Made by a program: the position numbers and the translations under genes | The notes under the pieces: model-generated | Told to the model about the DNA's origin: nothing | The model's database searches: none | The model's input: the letters and a program-made list of their open reading frames with translations, nothing else | In this document: positions 287-5,658 of the stretch, in pieces | Layout of the letters: each line of letters starts with the position of its first letter | How positions within the stretch are numbered: position 1 is the stretch's first letter | Assembly: GCA_047606065.1 (NCBI GenBank) | Contig: JASGEU010000133.1 | Span: 28,905 to 92,904 of the forward strand | DNA: 64,000 nucleotides | Direction of reading: 5' to 3' | Origin: Mobilitalea sp. | Lineage (GTDB): Bacteria > Bacillota > Clostridia > Lachnospirales > Lachnospiraceae

Positions 287-832
287 ACATAATAATACAA
301 ATAAAACAGTATTTCCAGACTATACCACGTAATTTTTATATATGTTATTATATTGAACCAAAGCAGAGTTAAAAGTTGTGTAAACGAACTTTTAACTCTG
401 TCATTTCTGCAAACTTTAACTGCTCAAATCAAGAGTTACTCTACCATATGTTTTTCATTGTTTTTCCAAACTTTACTGTCTTTATTTAAGATTTTTTTGA
501 AGAGATACAATTTTTATTCCAAACTTTATTGTCAATTTAACATTTTAAAAATATAAAAGTACCTTAAAATACATGTATAAAATTCCAAACTTTAATGTTT
601 CTCAACAAGTATTACAGCAAAATAATAGTTTTTGTTTAAGAAACTTCAACACAGATTTATCCTAGCGCTAATAAAACATATTAAACATGTCGAAAAATAA
701 TAAATTAAAAGAAATATTACAATATAAAGTCATATCATGTTATAATGCAACTAAGTAGTAATTTAGTACTGCCTAAAACCGAAGGAGTACTACTACATTT
801 ATTATAGTTTGAAACTATAGCGCAGAAAAGGA

Positions 833-1546
833 GTGTCCACCATTCGCTCATTATTAATTGTTGAAGATAATCGTGATCAGAGAAATTATTTGGTTGAAAG
901 TGCGCTTAAGTTCAATTCTGGCATAACGATACACAGCACTGATAAAAGGTCCGAAGCAATAAAAATTGTAAATCTGGAAGATATCGGGGCATTTTTTATT
1001 GATATACAACTGTTAGACGGTAGCGGGATTGAGTTAGCAAAAGAAATACGTACCATAAAAAAATATCAGTTTACTCCCATCGTTTTTATAACAGGGATGC
1101 GCACGAAAGAATTAGAGGCTTTTCATGATGTCCACTGCTATGATTACATCTTAAAGCCCTATACCAAAAAGACCATAAATGATATCATGACTAAGATTAT
1201 GGTTGATTACTTTGATCAACTAAATGAGGAACCCAATTATTTAACCTTAGATTTTAAAGGTTTAAAACAACGTGTAAACTTAAAGGATATTCTATTGATA
1301 GAAAGCCGGAGCCGTAGAATTATTATTCGGACACAATATGAGGAAATAAAGTACAAATCCATGAACTTAAGTCAGTTTACAAAAGAGTTACCTTCACATT
1401 TCATACAGATTCATCAGTCCTTTTTAGTGAATCGTGAATATATTGAAAAAGTTGATATGCTCAGTAATTGTATCTATTTGAAAGGGGTAACAGACAGTAT
1501 ACCCATTGGTGTAAGTTATAAAAAAAAGGTGGGTGCTCAAATATAA
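833..1546 (+). CDS. agrA: LytTR-family response regulator (AgrA-like)
   Basis: N-terminal REC domain (LLIVEDN, FFIDIQL, PIVFITG, DYILKP) and C-terminal LytTR domain (FIQIHQSFLVN); adjacent to a GHKL kinase. Confidence 0.85.
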   Translation: MSTIRSLLIVEDNRDQRNYLVESALKFNSGITIHSTDKRSEAIKIVNLEDIGAFFIDIQLLDGSGIELAKEIRTIKKYQFTPIVFITGMRTKELEAFHDVHCYDYILKPYTKKTINDIMTKIMVDYFDQLNEEPNYLTLDFKGLKQRVNLKDILLIESRSRRIIIRTQYEEIKYKSMNLSQFTKELPSHFIQIHQSFLVNREYIEKVDMLSNCIYLKGVTDSIPIGVSYKKKVGAQI

Positions 1547-2820
1547 TGGGAAATCTTCAGACAATTGCATTGACGTTATTTGATTATGTAATGACGTTAC
1601 TTTTTGTTCATAGTATTAAAAAAACTTTAAGGATACGAATTATTCCGATAATCCTATATATTGTTGTCGCCTCTGTTCTCATTGCCTTAGTTAATTTTTT
1701 TCAATTAAGTGATATTTTATCCCATATATTATGTACAATCATAAGCATTGTGGCTTTATATATGTATTTCTATGTTAATCAAGCTAAGAATGCTGCCTCC
1801 TGTGCTATGATATATTTTACTATCTCATTAATGATGATTGTTCTTCAATTAGCCGGGGTTGTAATACTCAACCAAATATTAGGAAATGTAGAGTACACTT
1901 TTAGCAACGGGCTTCTTTCTCAAATAGTATGCCTAGTTTTTGTTTTGGTTCTAACACGTTTTGTACCCTTCTCCTTATTTGATATCTATATTGAGGATCG
2001 AAACCCTGTTTTTAGTGTAATTATGACTGCCTCTTTTGTGCTTTCCTATGGAATAACCATCTTATGGTACATTGATGTCAGCAATATTACTAATGTTATA
2101 CTTGAGATTATACTTGTTGTACTCTTTGCCATTGTTATTAATACTATCGTCTTACGAGAAGGCTTTGTAAGCCGTAATTATAAAGAAAAGTTGGCAATCT
2201 ATGATACATATTTCCCAATTATTGATGATATGATTGAAGAAATTCGCGGAAAACAACACGATTATCACAATCAAATACAGACTATTTTAGCAATGAAAAG
2301 AGATGAAGTCTTCACAGATAAATCAATTGAAGATTACATTGATGAGATTAATAGCAATAATATCTGGAAAGATCTCCTCAAACTAGATAACAAAATTATC
2401 AGTGCCTTTCTTTATAGCAAAATGTTAGAAATCATGAACAAGGAAATTAAGGTTAAATTGACCATTCAAGATTTTACGATTACTTCAAGTTACAACTCCC
2501 ATCAATTAGTAGAAATGTACGGTATTCTCATAGATAATGCCATTGAAGCGATTGAAAGCATGAATATTGAAGGAGAGCTTGAACTTCTTATCAATAGAGA
2601 TAATGAAATCAATATTTTTGAGGTTAGAAACACTTATCGATATGTCAGTGTGGCTGAAATTAATAATTATTTTAGTTATGGATATACCACAAAGGGAAAT
2701 GCACCTCGCGGTATTGGTCTTCATAAGCTAAAGAAAATGCTGGAGCATAAAAAGGGTACCATAGATTTTTACTATGATACCACTTTAAGCAAGGTTGTCG
2801 CAAAAATTTGTCATTATTAG
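1546..2820 (+). CDS. agrC: AgrC-like membrane sensor histidine kinase
   Basis: About six TM segments, H-box QHDYHNQIQT, N-box GILIDNAIEA, G-box GYTTKG..RGIGL; 1-nt overlap with agrA. Confidence 0.85.
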   Translation: MGNLQTIALTLFDYVMTLLFVHSIKKTLRIRIIPIILYIVVASVLIALVNFFQLSDILSHILCTIISIVALYMYFYVNQAKNAASCAMIYFTISLMMIVLQLAGVVILNQILGNVEYTFSNGLLSQIVCLVFVLVLTRFVPFSLFDIYIEDRNPVFSVIMTASFVLSYGITILWYIDVSNITNVILEIILVVLFAIVINTIVLREGFVSRNYKEKLAIYDTYFPIIDDMIEEIRGKQHDYHNQIQTILAMKRDEVFTDKSIEDYIDEINSNNIWKDLLKLDNKIISAFLYSKMLEIMNKEIKVKLTIQDFTITSSYNSHQLVEMYGILIDNAIEAIESMNIEGELELLINRDNEINIFEVRNTYRYVSVAEINNYFSYGYTTKGNAPRGIGLHKLKKMLEHKKGTIDFYYDTTLSKVVAKICHY

Positions 2821-2954
2821 TTGCGCAGTGATTCAGGCACTTCAGGTTCACCCCACAAATAAATTGATGCTGATTGTGTTGCAATTACTGGTGCAACCAA
2901 AAGTAACAAACTGAGAATATTACGTATGAAGCTTAATTTCTTTCCTGATTTCAT
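2817..2954 (-). CDS. agrD: AgrD-like autoinducer propeptide, 45 aa (MKSGKKLSFIRNILSLLLLVAPVIATQSASIYLWGEPEVPESLRN); absent from the ORF track
   Basis: Translated by hand. RBS AAAGGAGG precedes the ATG at 2954, inside the agrB 3' end. Amphipathic leader, aromatic core, and the EPEVPESL tail typical of Firmicute AgrD. Confidence 0.85.
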   Translation of the reverse strand: MKSGKKLSFIRNILSLLLLVAPVIATQSASIYLWGEPEVPESLRN

Positions 2955-3510
2955 AGTAGCTTCCTCCTTTCATTGTTAATAATTGAACTGTTTGTAATAT
3001 AATTGTAAAAGGACCAATTAAAAATATTGGTTCTTTTATTATTATAAAAATTAATAAATAGGTTGTAATAAGAACTATGATATTTCGTTTTATATCTGTT
3101 ATATTCTTCTTTAAATTTCGTCCACTTTTATTAGATATTCTGGGAGCTATAAATAGTAATACTATAGCTATCGGTATCGCAATCAATAGCAAATAGATAT
3201 AATATTGTCGTGGAAAAAACACCGTTAAATAAACCAAAAGAGAAAAGTATCCAGTAGAGAACAATAGACAGCTCAGATAAGTATCATAATGCTTACCTCC
3301 AATATTAATACGAAGTAGCGTCGTTGTTAAAAACGCATACAAGTACTCTTGCCAAAACCCTAATAGAGAAAATAAAATTAATAGGATTAGGAATTTAGAC
3401 GTATCTCCCCAGATTACCAGCGCAGAATATTTAATCTGTTCCATCTGAATCTCTGTAAAATACTCATCTTTATTGAATTTATTCAATAGCTTTTGAATAA
3501 TATTGTCCAA
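2920..3510 (-). CDS. agrB: Accessory gene regulator B (AIP-processing membrane protease)
   Basis: LLRINIGGKHYDTYLSC matches the AgrB R..GGxH-x6-C catalytic motif; multi-TM; agrD lies directly downstream. Confidence 0.85.
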   Translation of the reverse strand: MDNIIQKLLNKFNKDEYFTEIQMEQIKYSALVIWGDTSKFLILLILFSLLGFWQEYLYAFLTTTLLRINIGGKHYDTYLSCLLFSTGYFSLLVYLTVFFPRQYYIYLLLIAIPIAIVLLFIAPRISNKSGRNLKKNITDIKRNIIVLITTYLLIFIIIKEPIFLIGPFTIILQTVQLLTMKGGSYYEIRKEIKLHT

Positions 3511-3620
3511 TTATCTTTTTCTCCGCTCGTTATTATGCCTTGATAGTAACATACCGTAAAAAGATATCAATTGATCCCGCAGATTTAATAGATATTTGTG
3601 TCGATTTTTCTGTAAAAAAA

Positions 3621-3655
3621 CAAATCTGCAAAAATAAAAGGCAAATCCGCAGAAA
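3621..3655 (-). promoter_or_regulatory. Putative LytTR (AgrA) binding direct repeat upstream of agrB
   Basis: CAAATCTGCAAAAA at 3621 and CAAATCCGCAGAAA at 3642, 21-bp period, typical of LytTR sites. Confidence 0.5.
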
Positions 3656-3744: not shown

Positions 3745-3785
3745 CAGCTTAGGACAATAACGAAATATGTTATTGTCCTAAGCTG
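3745..3785. terminator. Strong hairpin, probable terminator of the MCP gene
   Basis: Perfect 17-bp stem CAGCTTAGGACAATAAC/GTTATTGTCCTAAGCTG. Confidence 0.7.
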
Positions 3786-3827
3786 TTTATTCATGACAAG
3801 TGAAACGACTTGTCGTTTCATCTTGTT
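3786..3827 (-). repeat. REP-like palindromic repeat, copy 1
   Basis: Exact reverse complement of 19559-19600 (42/42). Confidence 0.85.
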
Positions 3828-3867: not shown

Positions 3868-5658
3868 TTAGATATCTAGTTTAAAATTAGATATCTCTCG
3901 CTTTAAGAAATCTGAATTACTCTTAGAAATCGCTGCCTGCTGCGCAACTTCTGCAGATAAATTTGTAATATCTGATATCTTTATGGCAATATCTCCTGTT
4001 CCTGTTGCTCCTTCCGTAGATGCTTGAGCCACCTCATTCACTGCTGTCATTATATTTTCAATACCCGCCAAAAGTTCTTCTGCAGTAGCACTGAAATCAG
4101 TAATCAGTTCATCCATATATACAGCATCATTGCTATAAGCTTCCGCAACACTTGAGATATTAGAGAAGCTTTCTGAAACATCCTTAGACACAAAGTCTAA
4201 AAGAGCCTTTGAACTGTCCGACAGATTGGTCATAGCCTCTGTGACATCCTCGGTAACCTCTTGAATTCGAGTAACTGCATCCCTGGATTGTGATGCTAAG
4301 GCACTTATCTCATCTGCTACCACCGCAAATCCTTTACCGCTTTCTCCTGCCCTCGCTGCTTCAATAGAAGCATTAAGCGCCAATAATCTAGTCTTTGCAG
4401 TTATTTTCATAATTGTTTCAGTCAGAACATTAATTTGAGATACTACCTGTGCTTGTTCCAATGCCTGCTCCAGTTTCCTCTCTATCTCATCCCCAATTTG
4501 CTCTGCTTTTTCTTGGGATAAATGAATTTCCTTTTTGTTGCTCTTTGCTCGTTTGCTAATCTCAATTACCTGAAGCGCTGCTTCCTGTGACTTGGTTGCA
4601 ATTGACTTGGTTGCCACTTCAATCTCTGCTGAAGTTGTTGACATCACCTGTGCAGATGCGGCAGTTTCCTGCATTCCTGCTGCCAGCTCCTGTGAGGTAG
4701 CTGCCAGATCCTCTATATTTGAATTTAATACTTTAATATTGCTTGTAATGTGTCCAACAACATCAACAATTCCATCCGCTGCTGATTTTGAACTTCCAAC
4801 CAAGTGTGCTACCGAGCCCTTCATAACTTCTATTTCTTGTGCTAATACTCCAAAATCGTCTTTTCTGGCGAGATATCGCTCGGGTAGCTGCACTGTAAAA
4901 TCACCTGTTGCAAGTGTTTTAAAATATGTACTGATTGCTTTAAAGGAACGATTTAAGTTCAGTGTAAGGTAGATAGTAACAAAGCCTGCTAATACCAGCG
5001 ATATTGTAAATATCACGACAAAATCTATAATATTACTCCTGGCTTCTTTCTCTTCCTGTTCAGCAATAGAAGCAATATAGGTATCAATGTAATCCGTATA
5101 ATTTCCTGTACCAATTACCCATTCAAAGGGTTCAAAGGCTAAACTGTATCCTCTCTTTGGAGAAGCTTCGGTCTCATCAGCCTTAGGAAACCAATAATCG
5201 GTATAGCCGCCCCCCTTACGTCCTGCCTCAATAATTGCTCGAATCATCTGAAAGCCATATTCATCTTCCTGGTCTAAGCGATTCTTTCCTTCAATGGTAT
5301 CCTTACCTAAGCAAACTATATTTAGACCCTCATAGGTATCAATCCAAAAATATCCTTCTTCACCGTAACGCATTTCTCTGACAGAATCAGCTGCAATTTT
5401 CTTCGCTTCTTCCAGAGTATATTCACCATTTTCATATTTGATATAAATAGCATTTATCAATGATACGACACTTTCTACCTGCTCTTTTATATTATTATCA
5501 AAATCTGTACGTATACTTTCTTCTAGTACATTTAAATTCCTATCCATCGTCTTTGATTGATTCATTATGGACAATCCAACCATTAACGACGCAACCACTA
5601 GTAAAACCACTGCAAGTAAAATAACTTTTGTTCTCACCTTGTAATTATTTAATCTCAT
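3868..5658 (-). CDS. Methyl-accepting chemotaxis protein with single Cache sensor domain
   Basis: TM-Cache ([22 protein letters not shown])-TM-HAMP-MCP signalling domain ([29 protein letters not shown]). Confidence 0.9.

Follow-up and report, generated by a model that had tools for sequence, protein, structure and literature searches.

A Predicted Serine-Type, Trp-Terminated AgrD Precursor in an agr Locus of Mobilitalea sp.

Described serine-type signals and the Mobilitalea agrD gene

Autoinducing peptides (AIPs) that are closed by a serine lactone have been established in Staphylococcus pseudintermedius, in Enterococcus faecalis, where the peptide is known as GBAP (PMC12312760), and in Clostridium thermocellum, which makes a tail-less pentapeptide (PMC5322536). 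The AgrD precursors of AIPs are defined as proteins of 40–50 aa with an N-terminal membrane-targeting leader, a core, and a C-terminal tail that is charged (PMC12312760). Here, we analyzed a 64,000-nt stretch of DNA from Mobilitalea sp. (contig JASGEU010000133.1, positions 28,905 to 92,904; GC content, 36.5%; hereafter, the window) that hosts a complete agr-like locus encoding AgrB, AgrD, an AgrC-like kinase, and a LytTR regulator. Judged from its sequence, a 45-codon open reading frame (ORF) in this locus is a genuine AgrD signal-peptide precursor, far beyond what chance would produce, and probably a functional one, belonging to a serine-type, Trp-terminated subfamily found across Clostridia.

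The C. thermocellum (Acetivibrio) AgrD, Clo1313_2818, resembles the window's AgrD in its Ser at the ring-closing position, in having a five-residue ring, and in carrying a Pro-containing tail (Verbeke et al. 2017, PMC5322536); its cyclic pentapeptide was found by liquid chromatography-tandem mass spectrometry and is active only when cyclic (PMC5322536). C. thermocellum degrades cellulose and is thermophilic, which probably also applies to the Herbinix/Mobilitalea relatives of the window locus. However, the C. thermocellum ring has Phe as its last residue, with Tyr next in the precursor (S25..F29, Y30), instead of Trp and Gly, which puts it in another subfamily, and its agrD is an orphan without adjacent agrB, agrC, or agrA, whereas the window has the full set side by side. 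The S. pseudintermedius/intermedius peptide, RIPT-c(STGFF) (PMC4774685; PMC12312760), likewise comes from a 45-aa AgrD in which Ser precedes the AgrB cut by five residues, and the tail of its precursor, DEPEIPAELLEEDK, is very like GEPEVPESLRN of the window. Its exocyclic tail of four residues plus a five-residue lactone would also be the architecture of the window's peptide if the leader were cut after Ala25. It differs in its amphipathic, not Sec-like, leader, in its single agrBDCA operon with RNAIII, in a ring ending in Phe, and in coming from the Bacilli.

FsrD/GBAP of E. faecalis matches the window in predicted chemistry (a Ser lactone formed via an AgrB homolog) but has a 9-residue ring in an 11-mer, compared with five residues in the window, and fsrD is in frame with fsrB, whereas the window's agrD overlaps agrB out of frame. 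The in-frame arrangement is mirrored in a distant relative of the window locus (L013:2959-3645; AgrB 36% identical), in which agrD is fused to the 3′ end of agrB (...MKSKLMKLGKIIALIVPVLVATTA-SMILW-GEEEYPQD) and the two are called as one protein, P0019, resembling fsrB-fsrD. LamD558 of Lactiplantibacillus plantarum, c(CVGIW), is a tail-less five-residue ring ending in Trp, like that predicted for the window, but is a Cys thiolactone and comes from lactobacilli. Finally, the homodetic cyclic AIPs (cAIPs) of clostridia, e.g., Rc-AIP1 of Ruminiclostridium cellulolyticum, are derived from AgrB/AgrD and tail-less (PMC8251862). In peptides of this type, the ring-closing residue ends up at the N terminus, so that an acyl shift to the lactam is possible; they use Cys and an S-to-N shift, whereas the window has Ser.

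The initial annotation of this DNA, made from the sequence and a list of its ORFs, had proposed a cysteine-free agrD with its own ribosome-binding site overlapping the 3′ end of agrB, and the gene is present as claimed. Specifically, it starts with ATG, encodes MKSGKKLSFIRNILSLLLLVAPVIATQSASIYLWGEPEVPESLRN, which contains no Cys, and overlaps agrB by 35 nt in a different reading frame. The motif AAAGGAG ahead of the start codon is invariant across five aligned loci, with the full GGAGG found only in the window and in loci L003 and L004 and replaced by GGAGA in L010 and L012. A check against family models bore out the assignment to AgrD, since the product scored 23.9 bits with NCBIfam TIGR04223 (“AgrD family cyclic lactone autoinducer peptide”), for which the curated cut-off is 19. 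The 45 aa also show the three-part layout of the family, with a Lys-rich hydrophobic leader (residues 1-25/29), the core SIYLW, and the tail GEPEVPESLRN. Moreover, the gene directly follows agrB, relatives have kept the overlap, and orthologs occupy the same position in five diverged loci.

The claim that this gene was unannotated holds true only for the ORF list used at that stage. The public protein collection already contains the exact 45-aa protein, an NCBI gene product from a 95,082-bp contig, and JGI and NCBI give homologs the name “cyclic lactone autoinducer peptide,” e.g., in Herbinix sp., Mobilitalea sp., and Alkalibacter rhizosphaerae. Nor did the suggestion of a possibly new quorum-sensing chemotype stand, given that Ser-lactone AIPs are on record in three systems and that Ser is the majority state in the subfamily. 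Serine-type AgrD is thus already annotated, common among clostridial relatives, and backed by a characterized precedent, and it represents no new chemistry or system type. The peptide SIYLW itself appears uncharacterized, as had been proposed: a literature search for the rings SIYLW, STYLW, STFLW, SMYLW, and SMILW returned irrelevant string matches only, and we found no characterized member of the Trp-terminated AgrD subfamily.

Predicted ring closure and maturation of the peptide

Relatives of the window's AgrD came from four sources: AgrB-linked loci, a profile search run exhaustively over 1.84 billion representative proteins, a second, indexed profile search, and a scan of species-representative genomes. 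All of them share the core xxxxW-[GD]-[ED]-x-x-x-P, plus an “AP” motif nine residues ahead of the ring, and the subfamily occurs in Lachnospiraceae-like, Peptostreptococcaceae, Clostridiaceae, Oscillospiraceae, and Tissierella genomes. Of 38 distinct relatives, 30 have Ser at the first ring position, 7 have Cys, and 1 has His, and all of them end the ring in Trp; in the 18 species-representative genomes, Ser and Cys each hold the first position nine times. Two pairs of near-identical precursors are swapped at exactly this column, namely ...APVLATQSA-CATFW-GEPEIPESLRG versus ...APVIATQSA-SIYLW-GEPEVPESLRN of the window and ...NMQ-CTMLW versus ...NMQ-STIFW. In addition, Ser30 aligns with the AIP cysteine of Staphylococcus schweitzeri AgrD (YSTC-YFIM/DEVEIPKEL; the slash marks the cut), and it stands where AgrD proteins carry their Cys/Ser nucleophile, five residues before the AgrB cleavage site. 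Because Ser and Cys share the column and near-identical precursors exchange them there, the predicted closure of Ser30 onto Trp34, giving a ring of five residues, is well supported by sequence, in agreement with the initial annotation.

The same holds for the predicted AgrB cut between W34 and G35, also well supported. Cleavage before GEPEVP had been proposed earlier, and it is borne out by the alignment of GEPEVPESL with DEVEIPKEL of S. schweitzeri AgrD as well as by its likeness, as compared by eye, to DEPEIPAEL of S. pseudintermedius (PMC4774685). Within the tail, E36, the equivalent of S. aureus E34, and P40 are both invariant. The codon for Ser30 is TCA, TCT, or TCC across the five diverged loci, and the codon changes that separate the C-terminal tail of the window from that of L012 comprise six synonymous versus one non-synonymous. 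These three synonymous Ser codons, together with purifying selection on the tail, argue that Ser30 is under selection and is not a recent lesion.

Three individual relatives deserve mention. P0034 has His at the ring-closing column (HSFFW) and Ser one position later, which suggests a four-residue ring or a shifted register. In P0020, Ser occupies the ring column and Cys lies three residues upstream (TCHA-SMYLW), so that two nucleophiles could compete. P0033 is a 52-aa AgrD homolog that JGI named “ABC-type sulfate transport system permease subunit,” an evident misannotation.

The partner enzyme, AgrB, matched PF04647 with 85.3 bits (E = 4.5e-24). Its four catalytic residues (Table 1) are invariant across the AgrB alignment and align with R70, G75, H77, and C84 of S. 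aureus AgrB, all of which are required for proteolysis (PMC10196373); the match was seen with the AgrB of a staphylococcal locus, that of S. schweitzeri (L014). With the Pfam domain and all four residues in place, the protein falls within the AgrB peptidase/cyclase family, and a PDB sequence search with it found no solved relative. We also considered the residue after the catalytic His as a determinant of Ser versus Cys type, as it looked aromatic in the Ser-type loci of alignment A2, but rejected it. Among 17 distinct loci, five of the six Cys-type loci had F at this position and four of the 11 Ser-type loci had L or M, so that the residue was uncorrelated with type, leaving no AgrB signature for Ser or Cys.

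From the established S. aureus pathway (PMC12312760, PMC8251862), we infer the following order of events. Cys81 of AgrB would attack the W34-G35 bond, releasing GEPEVPESLRN and forming an acyl-enzyme thioester, which the hydroxyl of Ser30 would then resolve into the five-residue macrolactone S-I-Y-L-W. The Lys-rich hydrophobic leader would be taken off at the membrane by a peptidase, after which the kinase would sense the peptide and its regulator would probably bind the TGCRGATTT boxes upstream of agrB (see below), closing an autoinduction loop.

Two sites can be proposed for the N-terminal cut. The −3/−1 rule of signal peptidases fits V-I-A25/T26, which would give TQSA-c(SIYLW), an option already raised in the initial annotation; of the 38 relatives, 26 have Ala or Ser at position −5, and position −7 is aliphatic. 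A cut at Q-S-A29/S30 does not fit the rule, although every clostridial AIP detected so far is without an N-terminal extension, even when tails of ≤4 residues were sought (PMC8251862). On balance, we slightly favor a cut directly before Ser30 and a tail-less product, with a cut after Ala25 as a credible second choice. In a tail-less product, a free alpha-amine would lie beside the ester and should, therefore, permit an O-to-N acyl shift to homodetic cyclo(SIYLW).

The sensed signal may be no lactone at all. In this alternative, the tail-less Ser lactone is transient and rearranges into cyclo(SIYLW), a cyclopentapeptide closed by amide bonds only, by a route that parallels, with oxygen for sulfur, the S-to-N shift of clostridial cAIPs. 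O-acyl isopeptides shift to amides at neutral pH, and 28 of the 38 relatives have a small residue (A, S, G, or T) ahead of the ring. The clostridial AIPs detected are all tail-less and those with Cys are homodetic (PMC8251862), and the Ser-type AIP of C. thermocellum is tail-less as well (PMC5322536). The idea of an O-to-N shift, put forward in the initial annotation, matches a question stated as open in the literature, where what becomes of Ser lactones lacking a tail “remains to be clarified” (PMC8251862), and our literature search found no later paper settling it. On the other hand, the −3/−1 rule disfavors the required cut at Q-S-A/S and favors V-I-A/T, and oxo-esters are less reactive than thioesters. 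Overall, we regard cyclo(SIYLW) as the sensed form as plausible, though we lean against it. More speculatively still, the same route might apply to the whole subfamily, in which case the lactone would be a primed intermediate: the leader would be cut before Ser30, a spontaneous O-to-N shift would yield homodetic cyclo(SIYLW), head-to-tail cyclization by AgrB would work with Cys or Ser, and the frequent Cys/Ser swaps between near-identical precursors would tune the lifetime of the reactive form but not the final scaffold.

Other alternatives concern Ser30 itself. Were the ring to close on Thr26 or Ser28, the product would be a 9- or 7-residue lactone like GBAP, and Ser30 would be a mere ring residue. 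GBAP does possess a 9-residue Ser-lactone ring (PMC12312760), and the five closest AgrDs all carry Thr or Ser at position 26; however, the other hydroxyl residues near the ring are not conserved (Thr/Ser at position −4 in 18 of 38 relatives and Ser/Thr at position −2 in 13 of 38), as opposed to Ser/Cys at position 0 in 37 of 38, and Cys as the alternative nucleophile is confined to position 0, bar the one Cys at −3 in P0020. Closure on Thr26 or Ser28 is, in our view, very unlikely.

Several observations weigh against a functional serine-type precursor processed as outlined above. Gly35, nearly invariant in the subfamily, stands at the column of the essential D33 of S. aureus AgrD, where D33 and E34 are required as acidic residues just after the cut (PMC10196373). 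The narrower Pfam model PF05931 (“Staphylococcal AgrD”) gave the agrD product a sub-threshold 12.3 bits versus 22.7. The window's own sequence was found in one DNA metagenome run only and in no RNA data, and no MroQ/CPBP-like leader peptidase is encoded in the 64-kb window, in which the motif matches are large soluble proteins. Furthermore, the −3/−1 rule and the clostridial precedent indicate different N-terminal cut sites, and the basis for the candidate autoinduction sites described below is conservation alone. The shortness of the ORF, its low Pfam score, and the missing RNA record could also mean that Ser marks a Cys-to-Ser loss of function in a decaying or silent agr locus or that the ORF arose by chance. 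Such an origin is hardly credible, as Ser predominates in the subfamily and persists through three synonymous codons, all four partner genes are intact with their catalytic residues in place, the NCBIfam cut-off is passed, and an ortholog is present in RNA sequencing (RNA-seq) data.

Partner genes and transcription of the locus

The coordinates of the features of the locus are collected in Table 1.

Table 1. Features of the agr locus, with positions numbered from the first letter of the window
Feature	Position	Strand	Description
Predicted promoter of the regulator-kinase operon	717..746	plus	Sigma-70 type; TTACAA-18-TATAAT, extended-10 TG; block conserved in five loci
AgrA-like response regulator	833..1546	plus	237 aa; receiver and LytTR DNA-binding domains; PF00072, PF04397
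AgrC-like sensor histidine kinase	1546..2820	plus	424 aa; polytopic N-terminal sensor of ~200 aa; GHKL ATPase domain
Candidate intrinsic terminator of agrD	2781..2748	minus	Hairpin GGTATCATAG-7 nt-CTATGGTACC, then CTTTTTA; antisense in the kinase 3′ coding end
agrD	2817..2954	minus	45-aa precursor; leader 1-25/29, ring S30-I-Y-L-W34, AgrB-recognition tail G35-EPEVPESLRN45
agrB	2920..3510	minus	Membrane cysteine peptidase/cyclase; 196 aa, TTG start; catalytic R67, G72, H74, C81
Shine-Dalgarno GGAGG of agrD	2967..2963	minus	8-nt spacer to the ATG; within AgrB codons K-G-G; context AAAGGAGGAAGCTACT-ATG
Promoter-like site inside agrB	3069..3041	minus	ATTACA-17-TATAAT; joint-best scan score in the region, 10 of 12
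Predicted agrBD promoter	3543..3570	minus	-35 TTGATA, 16-nt spacer, extended -10 TGtTACTAT (consensus scan)
Four candidate LytTR-regulator boxes	3578..3651	not assigned	Upstream of agrB; footprint conserved in five loci
Terminator of the chemoreceptor gene	3785..3745	minus	17-bp perfect inverted repeat, then T-run; 5′ limit of the agrBD unit

The two remaining genes encode a two-component system of the agr type, i.e., a polytopic GHKL kinase of the HATPase_c_5 type and a LytTR response regulator. The kinase matched PF14501 (HATPase_c_5) and, weakly and partially, NF046015 HisKinAgrCStaph; it carries the H-box QHDY (H238), and its first ~200 aa are hydrophobic by hydropathy. The regulator gave a partial match to NF046049 quorum_RR_AgrA. 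Every related locus recovered has the order agrB > agrD < kinase < regulator and shares the overlaps of 35 nt and 4 nt. The stop codons of agrD (2817-2819, minus) and the kinase gene (2818-2820, plus) overlap, as they do in relatives, so that the locus consists of two convergent units without intergenic space and not of the single agrBDCA operon typical of staphylococci. As separate agr operons are a known clostridial variation (PMC12312760), the convergent layout is no argument against function.

Comparison of the window with the STYLW-type locus L004 revealed that divergence is spread unevenly over the locus. The regulator is 89-96% identical, and in the kinase, identity reaches 93% in the dimerization and histidine phosphotransfer domain and 88% in the catalytic domain but drops to 62-72% in the first 150 sensor residues. 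AgrB is 74-79% identical, and residues 23-29 of AgrD are 43% identical. This is the hypervariable-cassette pattern of agr specificity groups and fits, without proving, a kinase that co-evolves with its peptide.

The two units have separate predicted promoters. In that of agrBD, TTGA and TG.TA.TAT are conserved in five loci. Four boxes of the TGCRGATTT type lie upstream of agrB and form the sole cluster of this motif in the 64 kb. Read in agrB sense, they comprise a direct pair of TGCRGATTT copies spaced 22 bp (3651-3643 and 3630-3621) and an inverted pair, AAATCGACA and AAATCTGCG, spaced 21 bp (3599-3607 and 3578-3586), the last of which is 7 nt from the -35 element. As a spacing of 21-22 bp is that used by LytTR regulators, we consider these boxes candidate autoinduction sites. 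The promoter of the regulator-kinase operon has no TGCRGATTT boxes.

Similar to the S. aureus AgrA box in their reverse complement, the TTCCAAACTTTA repeats at 404-600 were also considered as possible regulator sites but were rejected, given that they are absent from all related loci. The conserved part of the region upstream of the regulator is an ordinary promoter, and the repeats were set aside as part of an apparent window-specific insertion. They form four copies of (T)TCCAAACTTTA(n)TG, 53-67 bp apart, within a ~450-bp stretch upstream of the regulator promoter. This motif occurs nowhere else in the window and in no related locus; a dinB-like (IMS family) gene lies on that side there.

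Hints of transcription came from an ortholog of the L004 type. In RNA-seq run X2, a single 235-nt contig is 100% identical to L004:4926-5160, covers agrD plus 75 nt upstream and 22 nt downstream, and is the sole part of the 10-kb locus present in that run. In window coordinates, the contig corresponds to ~3029-2795, and its 5′ end lies 12 nt after the -10 element of the promoter-like site inside agrB, i.e., a few nucleotides past the expected start. The TATAAT of this site is common to the window, L003, and L004 but is not found in L010 or L012. Downstream of agrD, the 10-bp stem of the candidate terminator hairpin (minimum free energy, −19.1 kcal/mol; z = −3.36) does not vary in the five loci, not even at synonymous positions of the kinase codons, and its loop varies among loci, with the kinase protein sequence changing along with it. 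Taken together, the internal site, the contig, and the hairpin give a thin hint of a discrete agrD-only transcript of ~290 nt that may be abundant, with the caveat that this is one contig of unassigned strand and that contig ends are not transcript ends.

Past the kinase, our scan revealed no plus-strand terminator-like site until 3793-3816. Since the stop codons also overlap, the kinase transcript may read antisense through agrD and agrB, which could give rise to transcriptional interference or to antisense control of agrBD. A second conserved palindrome, GAACCAAT...ATTGGTCC, lies at 3008-3045 within agrB (codons E-P-I..I-G-P), flanked on either side by T-runs; in alignment A3, four of five loci keep the arms invariant, whereas the loop varies. 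This palindrome could serve the putative agrD transcript as a 5′ stem-loop or the kinase operon as a plus-strand terminator. An Rfam search of the whole 64 kb returned no family match.

Directly upstream of agrB, a gene on the minus strand (3868-5658) encodes a methyl-accepting chemotaxis protein with an sCache_2 sensor. This chemoreceptor gene is syntenic in loci L004-L006 and absent from L010 and L012, and a functional link to agr is without evidence.

Significance of the Trp-terminated subfamily

The window's agrD is a well-supported addition to the few serine-type agr signals and, with its relatives, brings in a sizeable, mostly uncharacterized subfamily with Trp-terminated rings. The repeated exchange of Cys and Ser within this subfamily amounts to a natural experiment on how the choice of nucleophile relates to signal stability and rearrangement, a point left open previously (PMC8251862). 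Clostridium grantii DSM 8605, whose ring, STFLW, closely resembles that of the window, is a cultured strain and makes both the O-to-N and the Cys/Ser questions directly testable. The host organisms are relatives of plant-biomass-degrading anaerobes, one of which, C. thermocellum, has an AgrD peptide already connected with the control of growth.

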